A stretch of DNA of 64,000 nt from an uncultured Actinomycetota bacterium (GCA_963705885.1 OY970120.1:2671219-2735218); one strand, 5' to 3'. Shown: positions 5,206 to 64,000, counted from the stretch's first letter. The notes: generated by a model not told the origin, from the sequence alone. A program made the numbers and translations.

Positions 5206-5215
5206 GGCTGCGATG

Positions 5216-45508: not shown

Positions 45509-45560
45509 GTTCGCCGGGTCCTGCCGCGTCGGCGGGGCGGACTGGGCCACACTGGGACCG

Positions 45561-45746: not shown

Positions 45747-45764
45747 CGATCGGCAGCGCGTACG

Positions 45765-47078: not shown

Positions 47079-47224
47079 GGTGCCTCCTCGGGGGCCGGTC
47101 GGACACGGTCATCCTGCCCCACGGGCCCTTCCGCCGATGCGTGGCGGGCCCGCCGGGTTTGCTAGGGTTGCCTGCGCACTTCGGGACGGCCGCGAGGCCG
47201 GGCCGGGTGCGTGCAGGACACCTC

Positions 47225-47310
47225 GTCCGGGTGGCGGAATTGGCAGACGCGCTAGCTTGAGGTGCTAGTGCCCTTTACCGGGCATGGGGGTTCAAGTCCC
47301 CCCTCGGACA
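47225..47310 (+). tRNA. tRNA-Leu (anticodon GAG), class II with long variable arm
   Basis: Read directly from sequence. Acceptor stem GTCCGGG/CTCGGAC (one GU pair), D-arm GCGGAATTGGCAGACGC, anticodon stem-loop CTAGC-TTGAGGT-GCTAG (anticodon GAG), 17-nt variable arm, T-arm GGGGG-TTCAAGT-CCCCC, discriminator A. CCA is not encoded. Confidence 0.85.
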
Positions 47311-47319
47311 CGCATTGCT

Positions 47320-47815
47320 CGACGCGAAGCCGCAGGTCACCGGCCTGCGGCTCGTGTGATTCCGGTGTCCGGCCGAAGACCCCGCTACGCCCAACGCCGG
47401 GACCTCAGCCCGGCGAGCCGGATTGCCCTGGAGCAGGTCCCCGCGCACCGCGGCCTCGAGGCACTTGCCGACGATGGTGGCGAGGTAGGCGACGGAGCGG
47501 TGCGACAGGCCGGTGACAGCGGCGTGGTCGGCCCTGCCGCTGTGAGCAGCCGGGCGTAGAGGGTGGGGAGGGCGGCGAGCTTGATGCTCTGCAGCGGTCG
47601 CGAGCTGAGGGCCGGCAGCCGCACTGCTCGACGGTGACCCTCTGCGGCCGCACGAACGACCCGGCGCCGACTTCGAGATACCTACCGGTGGCTTCCTTGC
47701 GAATCGGTTCTACCTCGGGCCGTCGGCCACCTTGGACCGGCGATCTGGGGAGTGCTCGCGAACGGCACCTGAGGGCGCATCGGGCGTAGCGTGAAAGGCG
47801 AACCAGGGGCTGCAC
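47320..47815 (-). pseudogene. possible decayed tyrosine-integrase-like gene remnant
   Basis: All three minus-strand frames carry ORF fragments, e.g. ...EPIRKEATGRYLEVGAGSFVRPQRVTV..., which is reminiscent of the integrase N-terminal I-K..GRY..V..G motif. No intact ORF exists. Purely inferential. Confidence 0.2.
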
Positions 47816-47871
47816 GCATGACTGGCAGTCGCATGCTGACCTGGGCTGCTCCCCTCAGAGAGTGGGTCGCG

Positions 47872-48315
47872 ATGGCCGACATGGAGTCCAGCGTGGTGAT
47901 AGCGCGGCCGGTAGAAGAGGTCTTCGACTTCTTCCTCGACCTGGATGCGAATGCATCGAAGGTCGATCCAACTGCAGGGTCTGTCCTCAAGGCGCCGGCT
48001 GGGCCTACCGGGCCCGGCACGACGTTTCGATTCAGGCAGCAGAGCCTCGGGCGAACGAGGGAAACAATGACTCGCTTCACGGCGGTCGAACCCAACGACA
48101 AGATTGAGTTCGAGGCCGAGATCGGCCCGATGAGACCCAAGTGCGACCTCACCTTCGCGGAGACGGCGTCAGGAACTGAGGTTACTTTCCGTGGAGACTC
48201 CAATGCCCCCGGCCCGCTCAGGCTGCTCAATCCGCTTCTCAACCGCAAGGGCCAGCAGGTTTGGAGTCGGAGGCTTGCCCGGATAAAGGCGGTCCTGGAG
48301 ACGGAGGCGCCCTGA
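47872..48315 (+). CDS. SRPBCC family protein (polyketide cyclase/START-like fold)
   Basis: Start trimmed to MADMESSVVIARPVEEVFDFFLD, a typical SRPBCC N-terminus. GC is about 60% with atypical codons (ata, gta, aca, act, ttt), so probably horizontally acquired. Confidence 0.7.
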   Translation: MADMESSVVIARPVEEVFDFFLDLDANASKVDPTAGSVLKAPAGPTGPGTTFRFRQQSLGRTRETMTRFTAVEPNDKIEFEAEIGPMRPKCDLTFAETASGTEVTFRGDSNAPGPLRLLNPLLNRKGQQVWSRRLARIKAVLETEAP

Positions 48316-48543
48316 CGCGTGGACGCCATTCACAGTCACCGAAGCGGTCAGGGAAGCGATTCTCGACGGAACCAGGCCGATTCAGCGGCATGTGCCGAAG
48401 TCCGTCGCCGCTGCGTCGGGACGGACCCTCGGAGCCCCGGGGTCGTGAAGGCCGACCTCGGTCCGGCGTGACCTACCGGGTCGAGCTCCGTCGCCGGCGG
48501 CACTCAGACACAACGCAGGGGCTCGAACCGAAGGGCACCCTGC

Positions 48544-49971
48544 CTACTCCAGCGGTGGGTCGGTCCCAGTGGTGTAGCGGCGCCCGAGCGGACTCGTCCA
48601 CGTGCGTACGCCCGTCTCCGGGTCGTACCGCAAGCGCCAGCGGCCGTGCGTCTTCGCGTTGTGGTGCTGCCGGCACAACGGGCCGAGGTTGATGGTGACC
48701 GTCCGGCCGCCCTCGCCGTGGAAGGTCAGCACGTGGTCACAGTCGCAGTCCTGGGCGCGCCGTGAGCAGCCTGGGAAACCGCAGGTCCGGTCACGGGCGG
48801 CGATGAATGCGCGCATCGCCTCGGAGGGGCGGTAGGTCTCGGCGCCGCGGTCGACGACCTGACGGGTCCCCGGGTCGGTGGTCCAGCGCACCCAGTCACG
48901 CTCGGCGGCAAGACGTCGCGCCAGCAGGCCGGGGATCGGGCCGTAGCCGGGCAGCTCGGCCGGGTTGTCCGCGAGCCCGAGCGCGGTCGGCAGGTCGACG
49001 ACCACGGCGACCGTCTGTGCTCCCCCGCACCGACATCTCGGCAGCTCCGGCGACGCCGCCGTCCCGGCCGGTGCCCCGCCCGGCGTCCCGCCTGCTGCGG
49101 TCGTCCCGCCGGCTGCGGGAACGGCAGCGGCCGGTGACGGAGTCGGCGCAGCCAGGATCGCCGCCACGAGGGCGTCCACCCGCAAAGCGTCCAGGCCCGG
49201 GTCCTCGGCGCCCGTCGAGCGCCGCGCGCCCTGCTCGACCGACGCGCGTCGGCTCAGGGCCGACCAGGAGGTGTCGGCGACGTCGGCCGGCAGGGTCACC
49301 CACCAGCCCTCCATCGCGTCGGGCATCGGGTTGCGCTCGATCGTGCGCCCGGCGGCCGCCTTGTGGTGGCGCCGCAGCGCAGCCGTCGGGTCGGCGGACA
49401 GGATCGCCCGGGCGGTCGCCCGCTTCATCTCGGCCAGCGTCTGCTCGTGGGCCTTCGCGAGCACGAGCACCTCCACGGTGGCCGACAGCTCGCCGTCGAG
49501 GTCGCGCACCGCGTCGACCAGGTGCGAGGCCTGCTGATAGGTGATCCGGCCGGTCTCCAGCGCTCGCTGCGTGGCAGCGCGCAGGTGAAGCAGGTCGTGG
49601 GCGACCCGCGTCCGGTGTGCTGCCGTCGGCGGCGCCAACCGGAGTGCGGCGCCGACCTCGTGCCGCGCGAGGTCGCCCTCGAGGCCCACGTCCTCGGTCG
49701 CGTCGACCACCGCGGACAGCGCTCGCTGCTGCAGCCCGTCGACCATCCCCTTGACCCGCTCGACGGCCTCGATCAGCTCGACGCGCGCGTCGCCGCCCAG
49801 CGACTCCGGCTCGATCGAGAGGAGCACCGCGAGCGAGCTCGGGTCAGGGTCGCGCTCGAGCATCGACCGGATGAGCTCCGGCGCCAGGCGTGGATCGACC
49901 CGCCGCTGGTCGAGCGGCAGCGGGTCGACCGGCCGCGAATCTGCGGTCGGTGCCGGCGCCGCTGGACTCAT
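48544..49971 (-). CDS. DUF222 domain HNH endonuclease (REP13E12-like family)
   Basis: 475 aa. N-terminal DUF222 region, C-terminal HNH motif CGFPGCSRRAQDCDCDHVLTFHGEGGRTVTINLGPLCRQHHNAKTH. Confidence 0.8.
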   Translation of the reverse strand: MSPAAPAPTADSRPVDPLPLDQRRVDPRLAPELIRSMLERDPDPSSLAVLLSIEPESLGGDARVELIEAVERVKGMVDGLQQRALSAVVDATEDVGLEGDLARHEVGAALRLAPPTAAHRTRVAHDLLHLRAATQRALETGRITYQQASHLVDAVRDLDGELSATVEVLVLAKAHEQTLAEMKRATARAILSADPTAALRRHHKAAAGRTIERNPMPDAMEGWWVTLPADVADTSWSALSRRASVEQGARRSTGAEDPGLDALRVDALVAAILAAPTPSPAAAVPAAGGTTAAGGTPGGAPAGTAASPELPRCRCGGAQTVAVVVDLPTALGLADNPAELPGYGPIPGLLARRLAAERDWVRWTTDPGTRQVVDRGAETYRPSEAMRAFIAARDRTCGFPGCSRRAQDCDCDHVLTFHGEGGRTVTINLGPLCRQHHNAKTHGRWRLRYDPETGVRTWTSPLGRRYTTGTDPPLE

Positions 49972-50225
49972 GGTCGCAACCTAGGACGGACCTTGGACAC
50001 AACTCCGGCCGCGACGACGCCGTTGTGACGTACGCCCGCCATGCCGTTCCTGGGAAGCACCCCGGTGATTGACCAAGCAACGATGTGGCGCGGTCAGGCC
50101 CGGCCGGCCGCTACACTGGCCGGGCGGCGTGCGGGACGCAAGTCCCCGTCGTACCTTCCACCGCTCGTCCGTCGGCCCTGGTCGGCGGAGCCGCGTGCTG
50201 TGGACGGCCGTCGAGGAACTAGGGA

Positions 50226-50618
50226 GTGAACGTGGCAGGTCGAGGCAGGATCGTCGGGTCGAACCTGGGCGGCAAGAGCTACGAGAACGGTGACGGGCCG
50301 AGCGTCGCCCAGGTGCGCCAGGCGCGCTACGTCTGCCGGGACGCCCACGTCACCGACGTCCCGTTCTCCGCCGAGGCCGCCGACCTCCCGGCCGTCTGGA
50401 GCTGCTCCGAGTGCGGCGACGGCGCCGTGGCCGACGGGCTCGACCCCGACGTCGCCATCCAGGCCCGTGAGGCGCTGGCCGTGGCCGCCCGCGGCGGCAA
50501 GCCGGTCGCCAAGACGCCGTGGCAGCACCTCATGGAGCGCCGCACGGTGCCCGAGCTCGAGGTCATCCTCGAGGAGCGCCTCGCGCTCCTGCGCGGCCGC
50601 CTGCGCGCCAGCGCCTGA
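50226..50618 (+). CDS. rbpA: RNA polymerase-binding protein RbpA
   Basis: GTG start preceded by ggaactagggag. Colinear with RbpA (...RIVGSNLGGKSYENGDG...ARYVCRDAHVTDVPFSAEA...WSCSECG...KTPWQHLMERRTVPELEVILEERL...), including the sigma-interaction C-terminal helix. Confidence 0.85.
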   Translation: MNVAGRGRIVGSNLGGKSYENGDGPSVAQVRQARYVCRDAHVTDVPFSAEAADLPAVWSCSECGDGAVADGLDPDVAIQAREALAVAARGGKPVAKTPWQHLMERRTVPELEVILEERLALLRGRLRASA

Positions 50619-50646
50619 CCCGCCGGCCCACCGGTACGGTCGCCGG

Positions 50647-50880
50647 ATGACGGGTCACGACCGGGGCCAGCGCACGTCCGCGTACGTCCTGGTCGGGCTC
50701 GGCGCGCTGCTGCTGGTGAGCGGCACGTTCGCCACCGGCCAGGCCCTCGCGGCCGGCAGCTGGGTGTCGGCGGCCCTCATCGCCGCCTTCATGGTCGTCA
50801 TCGTTCTCGGCATGAGGCGCGGGCTCAGCCAGCTGCGTCAGCCGCAGCAGCCTCCCCCGCAGCACCCGCCGCCGGACTGA
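50647..50880 (+). CDS. hypothetical small membrane protein
   Basis: 77 aa (MTGHDRGQRTSAYVLVGLGALLLVSG...AALIAAFMVVIVLGM..., Pro/Gln-rich tail). Good GC3 bias. The 3' end overlaps the convergent FmdB-like gene by about 40 nt. Confidence 0.35.
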   Translation: MTGHDRGQRTSAYVLVGLGALLLVSGTFATGQALAAGSWVSAALIAAFMVVIVLGMRRGLSQLRQPQQPPPQHPPPD

Positions 50881-51047
50881 GCACCAGCCGACGCGGTGGC
50901 GAGGCCGCCCACCGACACTGCCGACCACATGCGCGACACGTCGGCGTGACCCTCCGGGCACTGCACGGTCCCGGCGTCGGCCTCGATCGCGCGACGCACC
51001 TCGAACACCCGGTCGCACTCGCGGCAGCGGTAGTCGTAGACGGCCAT
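50838..51047 (-). CDS. FmdB family zinc-ribbon protein
   Basis: MAVYDYRCRECDRVFEV...VQCPEGH matches the FmdB/CxxC_CXXC_SSSS N-terminus. Gly/Cys-rich tail. Confidence 0.7.
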   Translation of the reverse strand: MAVYDYRCRECDRVFEVRRAIEADAGTVQCPEGHADVSRMWSAVSVGGLATASAGAQSGGGCCGGGCCG

Positions 51048-51079
51048 GCGCCCATCGTAGGTCGCCTAGCCTGGCGCGC

Positions 51080-52000
51080 ATGCCGGACGGACCACGCGAG
51101 CTGCGCCTCGCCGTCACCGCGGACGACTACGAGGACGCCCTGCGGTTCTACCGCGACGTCCTCGGCCTCACCGAGGAGGCGACCTACACCCACGACGGGT
51201 CGCGGGTCACGATCCTGCACGCGGGGCGGGCGACGCTGGAGCTCGCCGAGCCGGCCTACGCCGAGCACATCGACGAGGTCGAGGTGGGCCGCCGGGTCGC
51301 GGGCCACGTCCGTGTCGCGTTCGAGGTCAGCGACCCGCACGCGGTGACCCGGCGCCTCGCCGACGCCGGCGCGAGTGTCGTCGCCGAACCGGTCCTGACG
51401 CCCTGGGGCTCGGTCAACGCCCGGCTCGACGGGCCGGCCGGGCTGCACCTCACGGTCTTCTCCCCCGAGATCTACCTGACCCCGCCGACGCCGCTGGACG
51501 GACCTGTCGTGCTCGCCGACCCCGACCCCGCATGGGCGGACGCGGCGGACAGACAGATCGAGGACGTACGGCGGGCGCTGGGCGACCGGGCCGGGCCGGT
51601 CGAGCACGTGGGCTCGACATCGGTCCCCGGCCTCGCGGCCAAGCCGGTGCTCGACCTCGTCCTGACCGTCCCCGACCCGGCCGACGAGGACGCTTACGTG
51701 CCCGCACTGGAGGCCCTCGGCTACACGCTGCACCTCCGCGAGCCCGCCTGGCACGAGCACCGGCTGCTCAAGCACACCGACCCGGCGGTCAACCTGCACG
51801 TGTTCGGCGAGGGCGCCGAGGAGGCCGGCCGGATGGTGGCCTTCCGCGACCACCTGCGCGCGGACGACGGCGACCGCGCCCTCTACGAGCGCACCAAGCG
51901 CGACCTGGCCGGCCGGGACTGGCACGTCGTGCAGGACTACGCCGACGCCAAGTCCGACGTCGTCGCCGACATCATGCGCCGGGCGCGGCAGGGGCGCTGA
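51080..52000 (+). CDS. fusion protein: N-terminal VOC/glyoxalase-like domain plus C-terminal GrpB family (UPF0157) domain
   Basis: N-terminal about 120 aa have the VOC fold pattern (LRLAVTADDYEDALRFYRDVLGL...). The C-terminal about 170 aa match GrpB (VEHVGSTSVPGLAAKPVLDLVLTVPD...EHRLLKHTDPAVNLHVF...FRDHLRADDGDRALYERTKRDLA). Confidence 0.7.
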   Translation: MPDGPRELRLAVTADDYEDALRFYRDVLGLTEEATYTHDGSRVTILHAGRATLELAEPAYAEHIDEVEVGRRVAGHVRVAFEVSDPHAVTRRLADAGASVVAEPVLTPWGSVNARLDGPAGLHLTVFSPEIYLTPPTPLDGPVVLADPDPAWADAADRQIEDVRRALGDRAGPVEHVGSTSVPGLAAKPVLDLVLTVPDPADEDAYVPALEALGYTLHLREPAWHEHRLLKHTDPAVNLHVFGEGAEEAGRMVAFRDHLRADDGDRALYERTKRDLAGRDWHVVQDYADAKSDVVADIMRRARQGR

Positions 52001-53147
52001 CGTCGGAGCTGCCGCGCGACCAGTGGTGCTCTGCGACGAGCGCGCCGAGCGGCACGCAGAGCAGCACCACGGCCCAGCCCAGCGGGAGCCCCGCGGCGAC
52101 GAGCGCGACGACCGCGAAGCAGGCGACGACAGCCGGAGCCATCCGCGCGAGCCCGTGGGCCGGCGTGCCGCCCAACGGCGCGTGCAGCGCCCAGACCACG
52201 ACCAGGAACAGTGACACCGGCACGGCGACCGTGAGCACGATGAGCGCGTCCGACGCCGGGATCTCGTGGCTGACCGCCTCGGCGGCGACCTCGAGCCCCG
52301 CGCCGACCGCCGCCAGCGACGCGAACACGACGTAGTGGCCGTAGCCCCAGAGGAAGGCCAGCTCGCGGTGCCGCGCCAGCCCGCCGCCGGCGTCCTTGAG
52401 GAAGTAGACCCACCACAGGGCGAACAGCAGCGCGAGGCTCCCCGCACCGGTGACCACCGTCGCCACGGTGAGGCCGTCCTCGCTGACCGCGCTCTCGGCG
52501 GCCGTCGTGGCGGCCAGCACGCTCTCGCCGAGCACGATGATCGTGAACAGCCCGTAGCGCTCGGCGACGTGGTGCGGGTGCCAGTGCGTCGACCCCGGCC
52601 GCTCCGCCCACCACGGCACCGCCAGCTCGATCGCGACGAGAACGAGGAACCCCGCGACGGCCGGTCCCTCGGGCAGGGCGAGCCGGGCCAGCCAGGCGGC
52701 CTGCAGCACGGCCACCCCGACCGCGTACCGGCGGGTCGTCGACGCCCGCTCCGGGTCCCCCCGGGAGGCGCGCAGCCACTGCGCGACGAGCGCGACGCGC
52801 ATGATGACGTAGCCGACCGTCGCGGCCCGGAAGTCCTTGTCCTCGAACATCGCCGGCACCCCCGCCGCCAGGACGAGGACCCCACCCATCTGCAGGAGGG
52901 TCAGCAGCCGGTAGCCGACGTCGTCGCAGTCGTAGGCCGACGCGAACCACGTGAAGTTCATCCACGCCCACCAGATGGCGAAGAACGCCATGAGGTAGAC
53001 GACCAGCCCGTCGAGCACGTGGTCGTCCGCGATGTCGTGGGCCAGCTCGCGGGCCACCTGGGCGACGGCGACGACGAGCGTCAGGTCGAACAGCAGCTCC
53101 AGCGGCGTCGCGCCCCGGTGGGACTCGTCGACGTCGCGTGCGACCAT
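51972..53147 (-). CDS. low temperature requirement protein A (LtrA) family membrane protein
   Basis: Start trimmed to MVARDVDESHRGATPLELLFDLTLVVAVAQ (ATG 53147, confirmed), the LtrA N-terminal signature. Multiple TM helices follow. Confidence 0.75.
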   Translation of the reverse strand: MVARDVDESHRGATPLELLFDLTLVVAVAQVARELAHDIADDHVLDGLVVYLMAFFAIWWAWMNFTWFASAYDCDDVGYRLLTLLQMGGVLVLAAGVPAMFEDKDFRAATVGYVIMRVALVAQWLRASRGDPERASTTRRYAVGVAVLQAAWLARLALPEGPAVAGFLVLVAIELAVPWWAERPGSTHWHPHHVAERYGLFTIIVLGESVLAATTAAESAVSEDGLTVATVVTGAGSLALLFALWWVYFLKDAGGGLARHRELAFLWGYGHYVVFASLAAVGAGLEVAAEAVSHEIPASDALIVLTVAVPVSLFLVVVWALHAPLGGTPAHGLARMAPAVVACFAVVALVAAGLPLGWAVVLLCVPLGALVAEHHWSRGSSDVSAPAAPGA

Positions 53148-53329
53148 CGGCAGCCGCCACGGCCTGCGGCCGAGCCCCTCGCTCGCCCCGGCGGAGGCGG
53201 TCCTGGTGGCGTCCGGCACAGCCCGGACCGTAGCCGCCGCACGGTCCCCGCGCACGCGGTCGGCGACCTCGCCCGGCCGACAAGGCACAGGGCTGGACTT
53301 CTGCCAGACAAATCCCTAGCCTTGACCCC

Positions 53330-53926
53330 ATGTACGTCCTCACGGTGGACCAGCGGGACAGCCGGCGCACCCCCGACCTGGTCGGCGGGCTGCTCGAGAG
53401 CCTCGGCGGCGACCCCGCCGCCTACGTGCTCGGCTTCGAGCGCACGGCCGGCGACGAGGTCCAGGGCGTCCTCGACGACCCGGTGGCCGTCGTCGACCTC
53501 GTGCTCCGGCTCGTGCGCGACGGGGCCTGGAGCATCGGCGTCGGGGTCGGGGCGGTCAACGAGCCGCTGCCGCAGAGCACGCGTGCGGGCTCGGGGCCGG
53601 CCTTCAGCGAGGCGCGCGACGCGGTCTCGCGGGCCAAGTCCCGTCCCTACGACCTGGCCGTGTCCGGTGACCGGCCCGAGCAGGCGAGGCGGGCCCAGGC
53701 CGCGCTCGAGCTGCTCGCCGCCACCGTGAGCCGGCGCAGCGAGCGGGGGTGGGAGGCGGTGGACCTTGCCGCGGCCGGGCTGAACCAGATCGAGGTGGCC
53801 GCGCGCCTGGGCATCAGCAAGCAGGCGGTCTCCCAGCGGCTGCAGGCGGCCGACTGGCACGTGGAGCCCGACGGGCGCGAGCTGGCCTCCCACCTGTTGT
53901 CCGTCGCGGATGGCAGGGTGTCCTGA
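53330..53926 (+). CDS. SatD-like putative regulator with C-terminal HTH
   Basis: N-terminus MYVLTVDQRDSRR resembles the SatD family as I remember it. C-terminal HTH LNQIEVAARLGISKQAVSQRL. The stop is followed by the next gene's GTG within 3 nt. Family assignment is tentative. Confidence 0.5.
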   Translation: MYVLTVDQRDSRRTPDLVGGLLESLGGDPAAYVLGFERTAGDEVQGVLDDPVAVVDLVLRLVRDGAWSIGVGVGAVNEPLPQSTRAGSGPAFSEARDAVSRAKSRPYDLAVSGDRPEQARRAQAALELLAATVSRRSERGWEAVDLAAAGLNQIEVAARLGISKQAVSQRLQAADWHVEPDGRELASHLLSVADGRVS

Positions 53927-53928
53927 CC

Positions 53929-54501
53929 GTGACCGTCCTCGCCCTCGCCCTGCTCGCGCTGGCCACCCTCGCGCCGCTGCTGGTCGTCCCCGTCCGGCGG
54001 GTGGTGGACGACCCGGTCGTCCCGGTCGCCGCGGCGACCGCGCTGCTCCTCGCCCTGGCCGCAGCCGTCGCGGCCAGGGTCGACCCCGCGTCGGGCTGGC
54101 GCGCGGCCGCGGCGGCCGTCCTGGGCGTCGCGCTGGCCACGACCGGTGGCGGGCTCGTGGTCCGCTCGGTGTTCCGGCTCATGCGACGCGAGTTCCTCCC
54201 CGCCCGCACCAACCGCAGGGCCTCGGACCCCGAGACCTCCGACGCTCCTCCCGCGACGGCCGCCGAGCCCGGCACGGTGCTGCGCGGCGGCGCCTGGATC
54301 GGCTACCTCGAGCGGCTGGCCGTCGCCGCGACGCTGCTCGCCGGCTGGCCCGAGGGCATCGCCCTCGTGCTCGCCGTCAAGGGTGTCGGCCGCTACGCCG
54401 AGCTGCGCGAGCCCAACGCCCCTGAGGCGTTCATCATCGGCACCCTGGCCAGCCTGCTGTGGGCCACGGCTGCCGCGGGCACGGCCCACCTGCTGCGCTA
54501 G
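53929..54501 (+). CDS. hypothetical membrane protein, putative SatD partner (DUF3307-like?)
   Basis: GTG start at 53929. Hydrophobic helices VTVLALALLALATLAPLLVV, AATALLLALAAAVAA, AAVLGVALATTGGGLVV, plus conserved-looking WIGYLERLAVAATLLAGWPEGIALVLAVKGVGRY. Continuous codon bias from the upstream gene. Confidence 0.45.
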   Translation: MTVLALALLALATLAPLLVVPVRRVVDDPVVPVAAATALLLALAAAVAARVDPASGWRAAAAAVLGVALATTGGGLVVRSVFRLMRREFLPARTNRRASDPETSDAPPATAAEPGTVLRGGAWIGYLERLAVAATLLAGWPEGIALVLAVKGVGRYAELREPNAPEAFIIGTLASLLWATAAAGTAHLLR

Positions 54502-54510
54502 CGTCCCGCC

Positions 54511-55515
54511 ATGCGCATCCTCGTGATCGGCGGCACCCGTTTCATCGGTCGCCACGTCGTCGACCAGGCGGTCGCCAGGGGCCACGACGTGACCGTGTTC
54601 CACCGCGGCCGCAGCGGCAGCGACCTGTTCCGTGACGACGACCGGGTCGACCTGCGCATCGGCGACCGCGACTCCGACCTCACCGCGTTGGCCGACGGCC
54701 GCTGGGACGCGACCGTGGACACGTGCGCGTACTTCCCCCGGCAGGTGCAGGCGCTGGCCGACGCGCTCGGCGACCGAGCCGGCCGCTACCTGCTCGTGTC
54801 CAGCGTCTCGGCCTACGCGCCGCCGACGCACGCCGGCTACACCGAGGACTCGCCGCTGGCCGAGCTCGACGACCCGAGCACGGAGGAGGTCACCGGCGAG
54901 ACCTACGGCGGCCTGAAGGTGCTGTGCGAGCGGGCGGCCCTCGACCGGTTCGGCCGGGCCACCACGATCGTGCGGCCGACCTACGTCGTCGGGCCCGACG
55001 ACTACACCTGGCGGTTCCCGTGGTGGGTCGACCGGATGGCACGGGGCGGCGAGGTGCTCGCCCCCGGACCGGCCGACGCGCCGTCGCAGGTGATCGACGT
55101 CCGCGACATGGCGTCGTGGATGGTCGGCCTGCTGGAGCGGCACGGGTCCGGCGCGTTCCACGCCGCAAGCCCGCCCCCGCCCTTCACCTGGGGAGAGCTG
55201 CTCACGGCGGTCCGCGACGCCGTCGCACCGGCCGGCACCACGCTGCGCTGGGTGGACGGGGACTTCCTGCTCGGCGAGGGCGTCGACGACGGCGCGCTGC
55301 CGTTGTGGAGCGCGGGCGACCCTGACGTGCTGATGATGACCGCCGACCCGGCCCGGGCCGTTGCGACCGGTCTGGCCCCCCGGTCGCTCGCCGAGACGGT
55401 CCGCGACACGTGGGCCTGGACGCAGCATGCGGACATGCCCGAGGGCACCGGCCTCTCCGCGGACCGCGAGCGCGACCTGCTGGCCGGTTGGCGGTCGCGT
55501 CAGGCCCGTGTGTAG
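54511..55515 (+). CDS. NAD-dependent epimerase/dehydratase family protein (SDR superfamily)
   Basis: Rossmann motif MRILVIGGTRFIGRHVV; YxxxK-containing extended SDR fold. Confidence 0.8.
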   Translation: MRILVIGGTRFIGRHVVDQAVARGHDVTVFHRGRSGSDLFRDDDRVDLRIGDRDSDLTALADGRWDATVDTCAYFPRQVQALADALGDRAGRYLLVSSVSAYAPPTHAGYTEDSPLAELDDPSTEEVTGETYGGLKVLCERAALDRFGRATTIVRPTYVVGPDDYTWRFPWWVDRMARGGEVLAPGPADAPSQVIDVRDMASWMVGLLERHGSGAFHAASPPPPFTWGELLTAVRDAVAPAGTTLRWVDGDFLLGEGVDDGALPLWSAGDPDVLMMTADPARAVATGLAPRSLAETVRDTWAWTQHADMPEGTGLSADRERDLLAGWRSRQARV

Positions 55516-56760
55516 AGCACGATGCCCAGGCACATCTCGTCGGACGTGCCCTCCCCCCAGGTGACGTAGCGGGGCTGCTCGTCGGCCAGCTCGGGGACGA
55601 GCGAGCGCAGCGACGCGTCGTGGGTGCACGTGACGCGCAGCCGGTCACCGGGCCGCACCCGCACCGGCCGGTCCAGCGGGTCCGCGCCCTGGTCGTCGAA
55701 GTCCCACACGGGGCGGTCCAGCAGCCGTCGCGACGTCTCGCCGTCCCGGACGAGGTCCACGGTGATCGACCGGCCGAGCAGGTGCATGTGACCGGCCACG
55801 GCGCGCACGTCCAGCGTCGTGTCCACCCGGCGGTCGCAAGCGCTGCGTCGGACCCGCGCGCGGCGCGACGAGGTTGCCGTCGCAGAGCAGCTGAAGACCC
55901 GACACGGTGCGGCCCGAGGACTCGCCGAACCGGCTCACCAGGTCGAGCATCGACCGCGACCGGTCGCACATCGGCCCGGACTCGTCGGGCGTGCACGGCA
56001 GCTCGACCGGGGCGACGAGCAGCATCGTCTGCAGCGGCTGGAGGTCGGCCGTGCCGGGCATGGTGCGGAGCCGGACCGCCGTGTCGTCGGGCTCGGTGCC
56101 CTCGCGCAGGTTGTAGTGGAGCTGCAGCACGATGCGGCTGCCCGGCTCCAGCAGCTTGCCGACGCCGCCGCGGTAGACCGTCTCGCCGCCGCCGGGGGCC
56201 CAGCCCGCCAGCCACGGCGCTGAGTCAAGGGCTCCGACCGCGGACCCGGAACGGTTCGGCAGCGCCCCGCCGCCGAAGCAGGTCCAGCCGCGGCCAGCAG
56301 TTGCCGCGTCGTGCCGCTCGGCGGCGGCCACCTGGTCGGGCGCCACCACGTAGAGGATGGCGTGGTGCACGACGGCCGGGTTCCCGGGCAGGACGTTGGA
56401 CCCGGTGACGAACGCCTTCTCCGTCAACCCCGGGTCGACGAGGAAGCACCGGTAGTCGTCGAGCCCGCCGTCGGGTCCGCTGGGGGTGTAGGGGCCGCCG
56501 GGGAGCCGGATGGTCACGGACCGCTCGCCGGGGCGCAGCGGCAGCGCGGCCGGTGCGGCGGCGACCTGCTCGGAGGTGTCGCCCGTGGTGCCGTGGTCGT
56601 GCGCGCTGTGGTCGTGGGGGAACACCGCCGCCGCGCGCTCGTCGCTGCCTGGGCTGCCGGACGGGTCCGACGAGCAGGCGGCGAGCAGCAGCGCGGCTGC
56701 CAGCAGGACCAGCGGGGCGCGCCGACACAGCCCCCCTCCTCGCCGGCCGGTACGCACCAC
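55500..56760 (-). pseudogene. copper type II ascorbate-dependent monooxygenase-like (PHM/DBH-like) lipoprotein, disrupted by a frameshift (or sequencing error)
   Basis: Lipoprotein signal LVLLAAALLLAACSS. N-domain DDYRCFLVDPG...PAVVHHAILYVV...LQLHYN (CuH His-His...His pattern) is in the frame of ORF 55645..56760. C-domain AGHMHLLGRS...EMCLGIVLY (CuM HxH...M) is in the frame of ORF 55500..55826. The break is at about 55826-55870, in a GC-rich run. Confidence 0.6.
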
Positions 56761-56833
56761 CCGCCGATCCTAGGCTTCCCGACGGCCCGGCAGGGGTAGA
56801 CGACAACGACTGCCCCTTGCGCGAGGAGAGCCC

Positions 56834-57655
56834 ATGAGCACCCGACTGTCCAGCGGTCGCGGAGCCGCCCACCAGGCGGCCAACAGCGACGCCGTGAACA
56901 AGGCCGCCCGTGTCGGCTTCCTGGCCAAGGGCCTGGTCTACGCGCTCATCGGAGTCCTGGCGGTGCAGGTGGCCCTGGGCGACTCGCAGCAGGCCGACCA
57001 GAAGGGAGCGCTGCAGGCAGTCGCCGAGCGGCCCGGCGGCACCGTCGTGCTGTGGCTGATGGTCGGCGGGTTCGTCGGCTACGCGCTGTGGCGCTTCAGC
57101 GAGGCGGCCTGGGGTCGCCGCGACGAGACCGACGACCGCAAGCGCACCGCGAAGCGCCTCGGCTCGGCGGTCAACGGGCTGGTCTACCTGGCCTTCGCCG
57201 TCCTCGCCTTCCGCACGGTCACCTCGTCCTCATCCTCCGGCAGCGAGAGCTCCTCGCTCACCGCGAAGGCCCTGGAGTGGCCGGGGGGCCAGGTGCTCGT
57301 GGGCATCGCGGGTCTGGTCGTGATCGTCATCGCCGGCGCCCTGACGGTCCGCGGGCTCAAGACCGACTTCGAGAAGCACCTCGACACCGGCCGCATGGGA
57401 AGCACCACGTTCACCGTCGTCCGCCGGCTCGGCCAGGTCGGCTACGTGGCCCGCGGGCTCGTCTTCGGCCTGGTCGGCGTGCTCGTCGTCAAGGCGGCGC
57501 TCGACCACCAGCCGGGCAAGGCCGAGGGGTTCGACGTCGCGCTCAAGTCGCTCGCCGACGCACCGTTCGGTCCGGCGCTGCTGGTCGCGGCCGGCCTCGG
57601 CCTGGTCTGCTTCGGGGCCTACTGCGTCGCCGAGGCGCGCTACCGCCGCCTCTGA
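56834..57655 (+). CDS. DUF1206 domain-containing membrane protein
   Basis: 273 aa. Repeated DUF1206 modules (ARVGFLAKGLVYALIGVLAV; YVARGLVFGLVGVLVV). Ser-rich linker. Confidence 0.7.
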   Translation: MSTRLSSGRGAAHQAANSDAVNKAARVGFLAKGLVYALIGVLAVQVALGDSQQADQKGALQAVAERPGGTVVLWLMVGGFVGYALWRFSEAAWGRRDETDDRKRTAKRLGSAVNGLVYLAFAVLAFRTVTSSSSSGSESSSLTAKALEWPGGQVLVGIAGLVVIVIAGALTVRGLKTDFEKHLDTGRMGSTTFTVVRRLGQVGYVARGLVFGLVGVLVVKAALDHQPGKAEGFDVALKSLADAPFGPALLVAAGLGLVCFGAYCVAEARYRRL

Positions 57656-58449
57656 CCGAGGGCGTAGAACGCGACCGCGGCTGCTGCCGCGACGTTGAGG
57701 GAGTCCACGCCGGCGGCCATCGGGATCCGCACGAGATGGTCAGCCGTGGACGTCGCGCCCTCGGAGAGCCCGGGTCCCTCCGCACCCAGCAGGAGGGCGC
57801 AGCGGTCGGTCACGCCCGGCGGGAGCTCGGCGAGCGGCGTGGCGGCGGGGTCGGGGGTGAGCGCGAGCACCGAGAAGCCGAGGTCCCGCAACCGGTGCAG
57901 GCCATCCGGCCACGAGTCCATCCGGGACCAGGGCACGGCGAAGACGGCACCCATCGAGACCTTGACCGAGCGCCGGTAGAGCGGGTCCGCGCAGCGCGGG
58001 CTGACCAGCACGGCGTCGATGCCGAGCCCGGCCGCGCCGCGGATGACGGCTCCCACGTTGGTGTGGTCGACCAGGTCCTCGAGCACCGCGATGCGCCGGG
58101 ACCGGGCCGCGAGGTCCAGCGCGTCGGGCAGGGGCAGCCTGCCCATCGCCGCGAGGGCGCCGCGGTGCACGGAGTAGCCGGTGACCTCCTCGAGCACGTC
58201 GCGCGACGCCACGTAGACCGGGGCGTGCAGCGTGTCGAGCAGGTCCGCGAGCGCCGGCAGCCACTTCTCCTCCAGCAGGACCGAGCGCACCGGGTAGCCC
58301 GCGGCGACCGCCCGGCGGATGACCTTCTCGCCCTCGGCGATGAACAGGCCCTCGGCCGGCTCCCGGGCACGGCGCAGCACGACGTCGGTCAGGCCCACGT
58401 AGTCGCCGAGCTCGTCGGCGCCGGTCGACACCCGCACGATCGCGCCCAC
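57640..58449 (-). CDS. TrmH/SpoU family RNA 2'-O-methyltransferase
   Basis: Start trimmed to the GTG at 58449. SPOUT motifs NVGAVIRGAAGLGIDAV, LLLGAEGPGLS, IPMAAGVDSLNVAAAAAVAFY. Confidence 0.8.
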   Translation of the reverse strand: MGAIVRVSTGADELGDYVGLTDVVLRRAREPAEGLFIAEGEKVIRRAVAAGYPVRSVLLEEKWLPALADLLDTLHAPVYVASRDVLEEVTGYSVHRGALAAMGRLPLPDALDLAARSRRIAVLEDLVDHTNVGAVIRGAAGLGIDAVLVSPRCADPLYRRSVKVSMGAVFAVPWSRMDSWPDGLHRLRDLGFSVLALTPDPAATPLAELPPGVTDRCALLLGAEGPGLSEGATSTADHLVRIPMAAGVDSLNVAAAAAVAFYALGQRRR

Positions 58450-58615
58450 CCGGCCATGCTGCCCTACCGGTCCCGCGACAAGTGGTGCATAGGCACCCTT
58501 ACACCTCCAGACCCGGGTTGCCGACACAGGGAGGAGCACCGGTGCGAGACCGGCGCGCTCGCCCCGCTCCGCCCAGGCGCGCGGCGGGACGACGTACGGC
58601 GGGGAGGCGGGCCGG

Positions 58616-60901
58616 ATGCGAGACGCCACCGACGCCTCCGCTGCGGGCGTCCCTCCCGTCGCACCGCCCCGGCCCGGCCTGCACGCCGCGCTGCTCGTCC
58701 TCGGTCCCCTCCTCGTCGGTCTCGTCGTCACCGCCCAGGTCGTCGGGGCCAACTGGCTGTCGGCGCTGGCCATGCTCGTGGCCGCCGGCTGGACCGGCGG
58801 CGCCCTCGTCGTCGGGGTGCGGCGGTACCGTCCCGCCCTGCCCCGCCCCTGGCTCGCCCTCGCGGTCGCCACGGGGATCTTCGTGGCCGGCGCCGTCGCC
58901 CGGGTGGTGCTGAGCGGCTCGCCGCTGTCGCCCCTCGCCGACGTCCTGTCGCTCTCCGGCTACGCGACGACGCTCTACGCGTTCAGCAGCCTCCTCCGCG
59001 GCCGGGGCTCGGTAGCCGGCGACCGGCACGAGCTCGCCGACGGCGTGATCGTCATGACGGCCGCGGCGTCGGCGGCCGTGGCGTTGCTCACCGTCCCCAC
59101 CCTCACCGGGACGGACCTCCCCCGCGTGTACGCCGCTGTGCAGGGCATCTACCCGCTCATCGACGTGGCCGTCATCGGCGTCATCCTGATGCTCTCCTGG
59201 ACGTCCGCGGTCGCCGCGACCTCGTTCCGGCTGCTGGCGGGGGCGATCGTCGCGATGCTGGTGGGCGACCTCGCGTACGCGCTGGCGGCCCGTGAGGGGC
59301 AGCTCGTCGCCCCTCCGCTCGTCGACGGCGCCTACGTGCTCGCGTTCCTCTTCCTCGGCACCGCGGCCCTGCACCCGTCGATGGCCGCGCTGAGCGCCGT
59401 CCAGCGACGACCGGTGCAGCCCTGGTCCCCCGGCCGCCTCGCCGTCCTGGTCGTCTGCGTGGCGCTGCCCGCCGCGCTGCGCGTCCGGCCGGACGTGCAC
59501 GCCGCGGAGCGGACCGTCCTCGCGATCGGTTCGGCCGTGATGCTGACCGCCCTGCTCGTGCGCGCGGTGGGCGCGGTGAACGCCCACAGCCGGGCCCAGG
59601 ACGTGCTCCGCCACCAGGCGACGCACGACTCGCTCACCGGCCTCGCCAACCGCGCGCACCTGGTCACGCTGGTGTCCGGGCTGCTGGAGGACGCGACGCG
59701 TCGCGGTGGCGGTGTGGAGATCGTCTCCCTGGACCTCGACGGCTTCCAGATGGTCAACGAGTCGTGGGGTCACGACCTCGGTGACCAGCTGCTCAGAGAG
59801 GCGGCATCGCGACTCCGGGCGCTGACCGGGCCGCACGAGGTGCTCGCCCGCACGGACGGCGACCAGTTCGTGCTCGCCCGCGCCGTGGACGCCGACGAGG
59901 GCATCTCGCCCGCCGCCGGCTTGCTCGAGGCCTACCGGCGGCCGTGGCCGCTGTTCGGCCGCGCCTTCGTCCTCACGGCGTCGCTCGGGTCCGTCGTCGC
60001 GACCCGCGTCACGCCGGAGGTCACCGCCACCGGGCTGCTGCAGGACGCGGACACCGCCATGCACCGGGCCAAGGTCGCCGGGCGCAACCGGTGGGTGCAG
60101 TTCGACCCGTCGATGCACGAGACCGTCCGGTCGCGGCTCGAGACGGAGATGGAGCTGCGGGGGGCCCTCGAGCGCGGCGAGCTGAGCCTGCACTACCAGC
60201 CGGTCGTCCGGCTCGCCGACGCCCGCGTGGAGGGCTTCGAGGCGCTGCTGCGGTGGACCCACCCCGAGCTGGGGCAGGTGCCGCCGCTGGACTTCGTCGG
60301 CATCGCCGAGGAGACCGGACTCATCGAGGACATCGGCCGCTGGGTCATCAGCACCGCGCTGTCCGAGCTGACCGCCTGGTCGCGGGGCGACCTCTCGATG
60401 GCGGTCAACGTCTCCGCCCGCCAGCTCGGCGACCCCGCCCTGGTGGACCACGTCCACGAGGCGCTCGACCGGTTCGGCGTCGACCCGCGGCGGCTGACCC
60501 TGGAGATCACCGAGTCGGTGCTGGCCGACGACGCGGCCTCGCTCGCCGTCGTCCGCCAGCTGCGCGGGCTCGGCGTCCAGGTGTCCGTCGACGACTTCGG
60601 CACCGGCTACTCGTCGCTGGCGCACCTGCGGCGGTTCCCGGTGAACAGCCTCAAGGTGGACCGGTCCTTCGTCGCCGGGGTCGCGGAGGACGCCGGCGCC
60701 GAGGCCATCGTGCGGGCGATCGTCGCCCTGGCCCACGAGATGGACCTCCTCGTCGTCGCGGAGGGCGTGGAGACCTCCCGGCAGGCCGAGGCGCTGCTCG
60801 CGATGGGCGTCGAGTCGGCCCAGGGCTGGCTGTTCGGGCGTCCCGCGTGCGCGGCGGCCGTCGCCGAGACCGTCCGCGCCGAGCGACCCGTCCTCAGCTA
60901 G
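58616..60901 (+). CDS. membrane-anchored GGDEF-EAL protein (diguanylate cyclase/phosphodiesterase)
   Basis: N-terminal about 300 aa with multiple TM helices. GGDEF-region motif DLDGFQMVNESWGHDLGD. EAL domain with EALLRW, DDFGTGYSSL, and the conserved E...KVD...EGVE residues. Confidence 0.85.
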   Translation: MRDATDASAAGVPPVAPPRPGLHAALLVLGPLLVGLVVTAQVVGANWLSALAMLVAAGWTGGALVVGVRRYRPALPRPWLALAVATGIFVAGAVARVVLSGSPLSPLADVLSLSGYATTLYAFSSLLRGRGSVAGDRHELADGVIVMTAAASAAVALLTVPTLTGTDLPRVYAAVQGIYPLIDVAVIGVILMLSWTSAVAATSFRLLAGAIVAMLVGDLAYALAAREGQLVAPPLVDGAYVLAFLFLGTAALHPSMAALSAVQRRPVQPWSPGRLAVLVVCVALPAALRVRPDVHAAERTVLAIGSAVMLTALLVRAVGAVNAHSRAQDVLRHQATHDSLTGLANRAHLVTLVSGLLEDATRRGGGVEIVSLDLDGFQMVNESWGHDLGDQLLREAASRLRALTGPHEVLARTDGDQFVLARAVDADEGISPAAGLLEAYRRPWPLFGRAFVLTASLGSVVATRVTPEVTATGLLQDADTAMHRAKVAGRNRWVQFDPSMHETVRSRLETEMELRGALERGELSLHYQPVVRLADARVEGFEALLRWTHPELGQVPPLDFVGIAEETGLIEDIGRWVISTALSELTAWSRGDLSMAVNVSARQLGDPALVDHVHEALDRFGVDPRRLTLEITESVLADDAASLAVVRQLRGLGVQVSVDDFGTGYSSLAHLRRFPVNSLKVDRSFVAGVAEDAGAEAIVRAIVALAHEMDLLVVAEGVETSRQAEALLAMGVESAQGWLFGRPACAAAVAETVRAERPVLS

Positions 60902-61652
60902 CCACGATCTGGGCGATCGCGACCAGGCCCACCAGGACCACGAGGCCCCGCAGCACCGGCTGCGGCACCCGGCGGCCGATGCGCGCGCCCACCTGCCCGC
61001 CGACGGTCGCGCCGACCGCGACCAGGCCCGCCGCCTCCCACGCGACGTCGGTGACCGCGACGAACAGCAGCGCGGCGACCGCGTTGACCAGCAGCGCGAG
61101 CACGTTCTTGGCCGCGTTCACCCGCTGGAGGTGCTCGTCGAGCAGCAGGCCGAGCACCGCGATGAGCAGCACGCCCTGCGCCGCACCGAAGTAGCCGCCG
61201 TAGACCCCCGCTCCGAAGACGGCGACGTGCAGCAGCGGGCCACCGTGCTCCCGGCGTCCCCCCTCGTCCCGCGCCCGCAGGCGCCCGGCCAGCCGGGGCT
61301 GGACCACGACGAGCACGCAGGCCAGCCCGATCAGCACCGGCACGATCGCGCGGAACGCCGCCTCGGGCAGGGTCAGCAGCAGGACCCCGCCGGTCAGGCC
61401 GCCGAGCACCGACGCCACACCCAGCCGCACCAGCCGGCGCCCCTGTCCCGCGAGCTCGGCGCGGTAGCCGATCGCACCGCTGAGCGACCCCGGCACCAGC
61501 CCGACGGTGTTCGTCACGTTCGCCAGGACGGGTGGGTAGCCGGCCGCGAGCAGCGCGGGGAACGTGACGAGCGTCCCGGACCCGACGACGGTGTTGATGG
61601 TCCCCGCGGCCAACCCGGCCAGCGCGACGACGGCCGCCTCCCAGAGGGTCAC
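60894..61652 (-). CDS. sulfite exporter TauE/SafE family membrane protein
   Basis: Start trimmed to the GTG at 61652. 4+4 TM repeats with GxGGG-like motifs (GTINTVVGSGT; YGGYFGAAQG). Confidence 0.8.
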   Translation of the reverse strand: MTLWEAAVVALAGLAAGTINTVVGSGTLVTFPALLAAGYPPVLANVTNTVGLVPGSLSGAIGYRAELAGQGRRLVRLGVASVLGGLTGGVLLLTLPEAAFRAIVPVLIGLACVLVVVQPRLAGRLRARDEGGRREHGGPLLHVAVFGAGVYGGYFGAAQGVLLIAVLGLLLDEHLQRVNAAKNVLALLVNAVAALLFVAVTDVAWEAAGLVAVGATVGGQVGARIGRRVPQPVLRGLVVLVGLVAIAQIVAS

Positions 61653-61764
61653 CGCCGGCCCGCCACGGCGCCGATCCTCACCGGTGCCCGGCGATGAGGC
61701 AAATGGGTGCCCCCGGCCGCGAGGCCGGCCCGGGCGGGTCAAGGCGACCTCCGGCCAGGCCGAC

Positions 61765-62856
61765 GTACGACGGGTGAGCCCTCGCACCCTGCGGCCTGCT
61801 GCCGCGCTGGTCGCGGGCGTCCTGCTGTGCGCCGTGCCGGTCTCGCCGGCCCGGGCCGAGACCGCGCAGGAGGCCCGCGCCGCGGCACGCGCCGCGGCCG
61901 CGCGGGTGACCGAGATGCAGCCCGGCGTGGAGCGCGCGCTGCGCGCCTACGAGCGCGCGCTCGGCAGCCTGGCCGCCGGGGTCAGCCGGAGCATCGTCGC
62001 CGACCAGGCGGCCGACGCAGCGGCCCAGGTCGAGGCGGCACGCCGGGCGGCGGCGAGCGACCGCGTACGGGCGCTCTACATGACCGGGGGCACGGCCGCG
62101 CTCTACGCCAGCGTCATGGACGCCGCCAGCGCGTCCGACGCCCTCGTGCGCGTCGCCTACGTGCAGCGGCTCGTGGCCTCGGGGTCCGCCGACGCGCTGG
62201 CCGGTACGGCGGAGACGACCCGCCTGCGCGAACGGGCCGGCCGCCTCGAGGCACGCGCCGACGCCGGGGCGGTCAGAGCCTCGCAGGTCCAGCGCCGCTA
62301 CGAGGCGCTCGTGGCCCGGCTCGGCGACGCGACCGCCCAGGTCGATGCGCTCAGCGAGCGGGCGCGTGGGCTCGAGGAGGCGCAGCGCCTGCTCGACCGC
62401 ATCGCGGCGCTCAACGCGGCGGTGGACGCCACGGGTGCCCAGCGGGTCGCGACCGCGCGGGCCAGCGCGACCGTCCCGCCGCTGTACCAGCGGCTCTACG
62501 TCCAGGCCGCGCGCACCTGCCGGGGCATGTCGTGGACGCTGCTGGCCGCGATCGGTCAGGTCGAGTCGGGTCACGGCGCCAACCCGGGCACGTCCTACGC
62601 GGGCGCCCAGGGCCCGATGCAGTTCATGCCGGCCACCTTCGCGGCGTACGGCGTGGACGGCGACGGCGACGGCGACCGCGACGTCCAGGACCCGGCCGAC
62701 GCGGTGTTCTCGGCGGCGAACTACCTGTGCCGCAACGGCGCCGGCCGCGGCCCGGACGCCCTGGCCCGGGCGGTCTGGCACTACAACCACGCCGAGTGGT
62801 ACGTCCAGCTGGTGCTCAAGCTGGCCGGCCAGTACGCCCAGCGCGACGGCGCCTGA
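61765..62856 (+). CDS. secreted lytic transglycosylase domain protein with N-terminal coiled coil
   Basis: Signal peptide (RPAAALVAGVLLCAVPVSPARA). SLT catalytic motifs GQVESGHG, GPMQFMPATF, AANYL. The exact start among nearby GTGs is uncertain. Confidence 0.7.
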   Translation, partial: VRRVSPRTLRPAAALVAGVLLCAVPVSPARAETAQEARAAARAAAARVTEMQPGVERALRAYERALGSLAAGVSRSIVADQAADAAAQVEAARRAAASDRVRALYMTGGTAALYASVMDAASASDALVRVAYVQRLVASGSADALAGTAETTRLRERAGRLEARADAGAVRASQVQRRYEALVARLGDATAQVDALSERARGLEEAQRLLDRIAALNAAVDATGAQRVATARASATVPPLYQRLYVQAARTCRGMSWTLLAAIGQVESGHGANPGTSYAGAQGPMQFMPATFAAYGVDGDGDGDRDVQDPADAVFSAANYLCRNGAGRGPDALARAVWHYNHAEWYVQLVLKLAGQYAQRDGA

Positions 62857-62996
62857 GCACCCACGAACATTGCGCTGACACACCACCTCCGCGGCGTGCC
62901 CGGTGCGGGAGCGCACATTCGGTGTCGTACGAGAGCGCACGCCGGTCACCCAGGCGCGGGGAGGTGAGGAGCGGGCGGACGACGGGCCGCGCCGGG

Positions 62997-63914
62997 TCAG
63001 CGGGGCAGGCTCGGGCCGCCCGGGTCCGCTGACCCCTGGTCGCCACCGCCGAGCATGCCGCCGATGCCCTTGAGGGCCTCCCCCAGCTCGCTGGGCACGA
63101 TCCAGACCTTGTTGCTGTCGCCCCGCGCGATCTGCGGCAGGGTCTGGAGGTACTGGTAGGCCAGCAGCTTCTGGTCGGGGTTGCCGGCGTGGATCGCCTC
63201 GAAGACCTTCTGGATCGCCTGCGCCTCGCCGTCGGCCCGCAGCACGGCCGCCTGCGCGTCACCCTCGGCCTTGAGGATCGACGCCTGCCGCTCGCCCTCG
63301 GCGGTGAGGATCTGCGACTGCTTGAAGCCCTCGGCGGTGAGGATCGTGGCGCGCTTCTCGCGGTCGGCGCGCATCTGCTTCTCCATCGAGTCCTGGATGG
63401 AGGTCGGCGGGTCGATCGCCTTGATCTCGACGCGGTTGACGCGGATGCCCCACTTGCCGGTGGCCTCGTCGAGCACCCCCCGCAGGGCGCCGTTGATGTG
63501 GTCGCGGGAGGTCAGCGTCTCCTCGAGGTTCAGGTTGCCGACGACGTTGCGCAACGTCGTGACGGTGAGCTGCTCGACGCCCTGGATGTAGTCCGCGATC
63601 TCGTAGGTCGCCGACTTGGCGTCGGTCACCTGGAAGTAGATGACCGTGTCGATGCCGACGACGAGGTTGTCGGCCGTGATGACCGGCTGCGGCGGGAAGG
63701 ACACGACCTGCTCGCGGAGGTCGATCATCGGCCGGAGGCGGTCGACGAACGGCACCAGGATCGTCAGCCCCGGCGTCAGCGTCCGCTGGTAGCGCCCGAG
63801 CCGCTCGACCACGCCGGCTCGCGCCTGCGGGATGATGCGCACCGTCTTGGCGAGCGCGGTGAGCACCAGCAGCGCGAGCACGCCGACGACGACGAGCGCG
63901 ACAACGGACTCCAT
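62997..63914 (-). CDS. SPFH/band-7 (stomatin/prohibitin-like) family protein
   Basis: N-terminal TM, SPFH domain (RIIPQARAGVVERLGRYQRTLTPGLTILVPFVDR), C-terminal coiled-coil repeats (ILTAEGERQASILKAEGDAQAAVLRADGEAQA). Confidence 0.85.
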   Translation of the reverse strand: MESVVALVVVGVLALLVLTALAKTVRIIPQARAGVVERLGRYQRTLTPGLTILVPFVDRLRPMIDLREQVVSFPPQPVITADNLVVGIDTVIYFQVTDAKSATYEIADYIQGVEQLTVTTLRNVVGNLNLEETLTSRDHINGALRGVLDEATGKWGIRVNRVEIKAIDPPTSIQDSMEKQMRADREKRATILTAEGFKQSQILTAEGERQASILKAEGDAQAAVLRADGEAQAIQKVFEAIHAGNPDQKLLAYQYLQTLPQIARGDSNKVWIVPSELGEALKGIGGMLGGGDQGSADPGGPSLPR

Positions 63915-64000
63915 CAGATCTCCGATTCGTAGACGATGACGGTGGCCCCGTCGATCTGCACGATCTCGACGTTGCGGCCGGCCTCGATGCTGACCGACGG
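63914..64000 (-). CDS. NfeD family protein, C-terminal end (gene continues beyond window end)
   Basis: Minus-strand translation ...PSVSIEAGRNVEIVQIDGATVIVYESEI* is the NfeD OB-fold C-terminus. Its stop overlaps the SPFH start codon (ATGA). Confidence 0.55.
   Translation of the reverse strand, partial: PSVSIEAGRNVEIVQIDGATVIVYESEI

Follow-up and report, generated by a model that had tools for sequence, protein, structure and literature searches.

Organization of the locus

The window analysed here, a 64,000-nucleotide stretch of DNA from an uncultured Actinomycetota bacterium (GCA_963705885.1 OY970120.1:2671219-2735218), carries on its minus strand a gene whose product resembles peptidylglycine alpha-hydroxylating monooxygenase (PHM) and dopamine beta-monooxygenase (DBH). 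These are textbook non-coupled binuclear copper enzymes, which produce amidated peptides and noradrenaline in animals and have been studied almost only there. The gene spans 55500-56760, from a GTG start at 56760-56758 to a TGA stop at 55502-55500, and its length of 1261 nt equals 3 × 420 + 1 (3n+1), that is, 419 codons, a stop and one extra base. Its coding sequence is divided between two open reading frames (ORFs). The first (55645-56760) encodes 371 residues beginning MVRTGRRGGGLCRRAPLVLLAAALLLAACSS and includes the signal peptide and the motifs DDYRCFLVDPG, VVHHAILYVV and LQLHYN, then departs from conserved sequence past ...LVAPRAGPTQR. The second (55500-55826), in a different frame, encodes 108 residues with the motifs AGHMHLLGRS and SDEMCLGIV, the latter including DEMCLGIV. 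The frames share an overlap of about 290 nt that contains no stops, and joining them affords a repaired protein of 419 residues, to which the residue numbers below refer.

From its N-terminus, the repaired protein starts with a signal peptide read from the sequence (residues 1-29; 56674-56760, minus strand, as for all parts of the gene), which ends in the lipobox L26-A27-A28-C29 (56685-56674). A low-complexity tether follows (residues 30-74; 56539-56673) and is predicted to be disordered from the pLDDT values of an AlphaFold2 (AF2) model. The N-terminal beta-sandwich, or CuH domain, comprises residues about 75-250 (56011-56538), with predicted copper ligands H132/H133 at 56367-56362 and H215 at 56118-56116. 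A Cys-rich insert of two helices (residues about 256-307; 55840-55995) connects it to the C-terminal beta-sandwich, or CuM domain (residues 308-419; 55503-55837), which lies one base off the N-terminal frame and contains the predicted ligands H324 (55790-55788), H326 (55784-55782) and M409 (55535-55533). Alignment with a near-identical locus places the frameshift at 55838-55839, between codon R307 and the invariant C308.

Membership in the PHM/DBH superfamily

Assignment of both halves of the protein to the PHM/DBH copper monooxygenase superfamily is well supported. The 108-residue ORF matched the Pfam profile Cu2_monoox_C (PF03712) with an E-value of 4.9e-12 and 46 bits, above the cut-off of 23. 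In an alignment of 35 orthologs (A1; 56-86% identity to the window protein), mean column identity is 63%, and H132, H133, H215, H324, H326 and M409 are invariant, together with eight Cys residues (C105, C161, C256, C265, C293, C308, C378 and C410). Comparison of the ortholog profile with the rat PHM catalytic core by hhalign gave 96.5% probability and an E-value of 8e-10 over 262 columns that cover both domains. H132, H133 and H215 align to PHM H107, H108 and H172, and H324, H326 and M409 to PHM H242, H244 and M314, with the motif pairs VHHAIL/VHHMLL, LQLHY/LQVHY, GHMH/VHTH and SDEMC/SDEMC (window family first). An earlier interpretation made from the DNA alone, here called the sequence-only reading, had proposed this family for both halves and recognized the CuH (H,H,H) and CuM (HxH...M) ligand sets; all six ligands and the family assignment are borne out.

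The predicted fold leads to the same family. The AF2 model contains two beta-sandwiches; its pLDDT averages 79.6 and exceeds 85 over most of the core, with values below 50 for residues 1-65. When it was compared with the PDB by Foldseek, the top 31 matches were all human DBH (4zel) or rat PHM, with E-values of 1e-13 to 3e-11, a probability of 1.0 and TM scores of up to 0.71 as normalized to the target. Sequence-only searches of the PDB were weak (phmmer E=0.02 to DBH; profile E=4e-4 to PHM), and a 55-residue C-terminal fragment returned chance nanobody matches only. Two-jelly-roll proteins of the PNGase F type (1pgs, 7zgn) have a similar topology and appeared as weak Foldseek matches (E about 1e-4), but they possess no copper ligands and show 7-8% identity and TM scores of 0.26-0.38, a likeness at the level of fold only.

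Some observations weigh against the assignment. The second profile suggested with the sequence-only reading, Cu2_monooxygen (PF01082), gave 20.3 bits (E=6.4e-4) on the 371-residue ORF, under its cut-off of 30, in contrast to the clear C-terminal match. Because its own Pfam score is sub-threshold, the N-terminal half is placed by its orthologs, many of which have a precomputed PF01082 match at 60-70% identity, and by hhalign and fold. Furthermore, the PHM query used in hhalign was checked against PDB sequences over two long stretches, which agree, and no bacterial structure of the family was found among PDB matches by sequence or Foldseek.

Comparison with PHM and DBH

The window protein is neither PHM nor DBH in the strict sense, since PHM substrate residues are replaced, a DOMON domain is missing and there is no PAL neighbour. 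PHM, the catalytic core of rat and human PAM (1PHM, 1OPM, 1SDW), is likewise a two-domain beta-sandwich with the same CuH His-His...His and CuM His-x-His...Met positions, and at about 18-20% identity it has in common with the window protein the LQVHY motif (LQLHY here), SDEMC and several conserved Cys residues. Its extracytoplasmic or lumenal location also corresponds to that predicted for the window protein. PHM lacks the Cys-rich two-helix insert, which places about 50 residues between the domains of the window protein, is modelled by AF2 with helices at 267-278 and 280-292, and is specific to the bacterial clade, appearing as a gap versus PHM in hhalign; C256, C265 and C293 are its invariant Cys residues. 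The PHM substrate anchors R240 (the carboxylate anchor), N316 and Y318 correspond in the window family to the invariant A322 and to L411 and I413, each conserved to at least 90%, and these replacements by Ala, Leu and Ile argue that the substrate is not a glycine-extended peptide. Finally, PHM occurs in a secretory or PAL-linked context, whereas the window protein has a lipoprotein anchor and no PAL domain is fused or adjacent to its gene.

The group of DBH, tyramine beta-monooxygenase and MOXD1 provides the best single PDB match (4ZEL; Foldseek E=1.2e-13), which was also found by phmmer. DBH HTHLTGRK resembles the CuM motif of the window protein, H-x-H-L-x-G-R, and members of the group, like the window protein, have no arginine at the position of PHM R240. 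Identity to DBH is about 17-18%. The DBH group possesses a DOMON and a dimerization domain, neither of which was found by Pfam in the window protein, a bacterial lipoprotein in which residues 30-74 form the disordered tether.

Lipoprotein signal and tether

A basic n-region and a hydrophobic h-region precede the LAAC lipobox, whose Cys29 is at least 90% conserved among the 35 orthologs, in agreement with the lipoprotein signal described in the sequence-only reading. Among 109 homologs, 88 fit the lipobox pattern [LVI][ASTVI][GAS]C. Export by the Tat route was considered; a twin arginine is present in the n-region of the window protein and in only 34 of the 88 homologs.

A His-rich segment, HDHSAHDH (residues 49-56; 56616-56593, minus strand), falls within the disordered tether that links the lipid anchor to the catalytic core. 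Tethers with at least four His residues occur in 21 of 88 relatives, where a related motif reads HTHxPGTxPHSHG, and the His-rich tether may be a copper-capture site.

A large bacterial branch and its genomic neighbourhood

Searches with the repaired 419-residue protein returned 4695 homologs at E<=1e-3. Species-representative genomes across Actinomycetota contributed at least 580 confirmed relatives among the 600 pattern matches listed, and the best 80 matches include Nocardioides, Jatrophihabitans, Longivirga, Pedococcus, Sphaerisporangium and Nanopelagicales. Similarly, an exhaustive profile search of 1.84 billion representatives gave 944 clusters (50% identity) with E<=1e-30, a figure that rises to 3348 when E<=1e-10 is allowed. 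Homologs are labelled in their sources as 'hypothetical protein', as 'monooxygenase' or by the name of a Pfam domain. Overall, the window gene ranks as an ordinary member of a bacterial branch that is large and annotated, but uncharacterised, within a known superfamily. The sequence-only reading had described such enzymes as mostly eukaryotic with few characterised bacterial members; we found no characterised member, but bacteria have the family in abundance and it cannot be called rare.

The window gene lies between a divergent gene for a DUF1206 membrane protein (56834-57655) and a convergent gene for an NAD-dependent epimerase (54511-55515). The divergent starts of the monooxygenase and DUF1206 genes are 73 bp apart (56761-56833), and a promoter and terminator scan detected none at the locus, including no sigma-70-like promoter in 56761-56833. 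ORFs were called and clustered in 81 related loci and the window, 82 regions in all, among which the commonest neighbours are an ABC ATPase (19), a TrmH/SpoU methylase (18), the epimerase (11) and DUF1206 (8), with Band7/NfeD and TauE genes also seen. Since DUF1206 adjoins the monooxygenase gene in only 8 of the 82 regions, their pairing is probably local synteny. A conserved operon partner was rejected, the common neighbours representing housekeeping synteny.

Fusions to cytochrome and YceI domains

Domain fusions (relatives P0156-P0288; alignments A2 and A3) were surveyed in the 150 best representatives, of which 66 have at least 440 residues. In 59 of these 66 long relatives a CxxCH motif precedes the CuH 'HH' motif by about 140 residues, 26 have a Pfam Cytochrome_CBB3 match, and 16 possess a YceI-like domain in addition. 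The YceI domain is a polyisoprenoid-binding domain with a lipocalin-like fold. Fusions of the cytochrome c-PHM-like and YceI-cytochrome c-PHM-like types (P0156, P0184, P0202 and P0209) show 33-37% identity to the window protein over the whole core and retain the six ligands, the eight Cys residues and the insert (A2). They are encoded by stand-alone genes, again without a conserved partner, and are uncharacterised, like the window gene. P0156, a cytochrome fusion labelled Gaiellaceae (Actinomycetota, the same phylum) from a metagenome-assembled genome, has more than 4600 relatives.

Predicted activity

Taken together, sequence comparison and modelling indicate that the window gene very probably encodes a lipid-anchored, extracytoplasmic two-copper monooxygenase belonging to a large clade of bacterial proteins within the PHM/DBH superfamily ('copper type II, ascorbate-dependent'). 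By homology, CuH would accept electrons singly from an external donor, and CuM would bind O2 and hydroxylate the substrate, held between the two domains, at a C-H bond. This prediction has to be set against a lack of outside support: NCBIfam holds no model for the family, full-text literature searches found no paper on any bacterial member, be it on activity, copper content or substrate, and no conserved neighbour pointing to a substrate or donor emerged from the 81 loci and the window, so that the cognate partner gene sought in the context of relatives did not materialize.

A protein with the PHM/DBH fold could also act as an extracytoplasmic copper-binding or buffering lipoprotein, or as a copper chaperone, with no oxygenase activity. 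Such a role would suit a His-rich tether that adjoins the lipid anchor, the lack of substrate-related neighbour genes and the absence of the PHM substrate-binding residues. However, the full catalytic ligand set, including the CuM Met, is invariant in relatives at 33-37% identity, as is the SDEMC motif in common with PHM, and in many relatives a c-type cytochrome is joined to the core, which points to electron delivery and redox catalysis. The His-rich tether, moreover, occurs in a minority of relatives only. We regard a purely copper-handling function as improbable.

As for the chemistry of the predicted monooxygenase, the fusions offer clues to both donor and substrate. Ascorbate is not expected as a reductant in actinomycetes, and the cytochrome relatives suggest, by a domain-fusion argument, that the physiological donor to CuH is probably a redox protein, most plausibly a haem protein, instead of ascorbate. 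Together with the lipid anchor and the hydrophobic residues that line the pocket in place of those of PHM, the YceI domain suggests a lipophilic substrate at the membrane surface. A speculative scheme would have the clade comprise bacterial non-coupled two-copper monooxygenases that are reduced by a protein partner (a c-type haem, fused in Gaiellales-type relatives) and not by ascorbate, and that act on the outer face of the cytoplasmic membrane to hydroxylate a lipophilic molecule, possibly a polyisoprenoid. Telling against it, the cytochrome and YceI domains are absent from the window protein, and the transfer of meaning from its fused relatives is indirect.

If haem-fed lipid hydroxylation were true, it would represent a widespread and unrecognised envelope chemistry in Actinomycetota, together with an easily expressed prokaryotic model for PHM and DBH. 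A large bacterial clade in which every catalytic residue is kept could supply tractable prokaryotic models and could show how enzymes of this kind obtain their electrons when ascorbate is not the donor. Taken as a whole, the clade is a reasonable subject for biochemical work.

A single extra base at the domain junction

The sequence-only reading had located a frame break at about 55826-55870, and comparison of alleles resolves it, within that range, to one extra T in the coding strand (AA at 55838-55839 of the plus strand). The window allele at the junction reads CAGCGCTTGC, and the relevant difference is CGC-TT-GCGAC in the window versus CGC-T-GCGAC in locus L001. This locus lies on a 1.58-Mb ENA metagenome contig, encodes an intact 419-residue protein (P0123) and matches window positions 45499-64000 with 99.87% identity over 18.5 kb, with 18 substitutions and 4 indel events; differences within the gene are three substitutions and the extra T. 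No gap occurs at the break among the 35 aligned orthologs (consensus GPTQ[RSAH]CDRR), and all of them, as well as L001, are intact single ORFs.

The top homolog of the repaired protein, P0001, comes from a Logan assembly of run ERR12037361 and is an intact 419-residue protein, with identity and coverage both given as 100%. Its sequence departs from the window product at one position only, junction residue 307, which is Ala in P0001 versus Arg in the window; it has the Glu339 allele of the window and comes from a different public run than L001. The 90% cluster of P0001 has four members, of which P0123 is another. P0122, from a 3.63-Mb NCBI/ENA contig, is the same as the broken 371-residue product of the window, and P0121 is a 111-residue fragment from a third assembly. 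Two independent assemblies, then, encode an intact protein in which 417-418 of 419 residues match the repaired product of the window. JGI metagenomes, when scanned for the exact junction pattern, gave no match.

The third same-species assembly (L082/L084; ENA ERZ25039516, contig_47568) was uninformative. It matches the window near-exactly for its first 3 kb and then continues at about 94% identity with dozens of indels in a downstream half that includes the target gene. The target gene is split elsewhere there, into 111 and 308 residues, and the contig looks chimeric or poorly polished.

Origin of the frameshift

The break is either an error in the consensus or a mutation that is specific to the strain and very recent, and not an old pseudogene. 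The out-of-frame C-terminal half has a third-position GC content (GC3) of 0.956 and zero stops, and therefore shows no decay; this, with intact copies at 99.87% DNA identity, restricts the event to an error or a very recent change. The dead gene that the sequence-only reading had allowed for finds no support beyond the single base, as there are no further lesions.

A consensus error appears to be the likely cause. A gene with an SLT (lytic transglycosylase) domain is a single intact ORF in the window (about 61810-62853, plus strand), and its L001 counterpart (3880-5230) is frameshifted by an indel that represents an extra G (window 62275, L001 4485), so that the gene call in L001 is shortened to 144 residues. 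As the window and L001 each carry a private break, breaks of this kind look to be characteristic of these assemblies. Of the four indels between window and L001, three sit within 41 nt of a substitution, and substitutions average about 1 per kb; this clustering fits mixed-strain consensus problems or local hypervariable patches. The junction itself may be read in the same way. If the Ala codon of P0001 is GCT, the 13-nt window junction, CAG-CGC-TT-GC, would be the union of CAG-CGC-T-GC from L001 and CAG-GC-TT-GC as implied by P0001, and a union of two intact 12-nt haplotypes is what a mixed-strain consensus would give. On the other side, a GC3 frame scan of the 64 kb found no second gene with an out-of-frame tail, which counts against an error-prone assembly and fits a real mutation and a rare error alike.

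Were the frameshift real, the gene would be a freshly inactivated pseudogene in this strain, and its product a 371-residue lipoprotein that retains the CuH domain, lacks the CuM domain and includes 64 aberrant residues. The window assembly is not obviously error-prone, since no other gene in the 64 kb is frameshifted, and the extra base lies outside any long homopolymer. The Q-A-C junction of P0001 can also be turned in favour of a real mutation: with GCT as the Ala codon, its DNA would equal the window allele minus one C, a natural compensating deletion that would imply circulation of the +T allele. These points meet the two independent assemblies with an intact protein, the lack of secondary lesions in the C-terminal half, the strong conservation across the family, the private frameshift of L001 in another gene and the putative origin of the junction from two intact haplotypes. 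We therefore consider a genuine lesion quite conceivable but somewhat doubtful. Programmed +1 ribosomal frameshifting or another form of recoding, by which a full-length enzyme would be made, is rejected as extremely improbable. A shift could in principle restore the protein within the stop-free overlap of the frames, but the extra base is present in none of the 35 orthologs nor in L001, whereas a programmed site would be conserved, and CAG-CGC-TTG-CGA contains no slippery or hungry-codon motif. Accordingly, the window frameshift is best taken for a probable error of assembly, or else for a lesion of very recent origin.

Other features of the window

Elsewhere in the window, a tRNA-Leu(GAG) gene at 47225-47311 (plus strand) is followed by about 1.3 kb without a coding-type GC3 signal (in region 47300-49926) and then by the counterpart (about 48577-49926, minus strand) of L001 16789-18216, which is called as DUF222 (HNH-associated) in L001. 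The stretch from tRNA-Leu(GAG) to the DUF222 gene may be a small element integrated at the tRNA.

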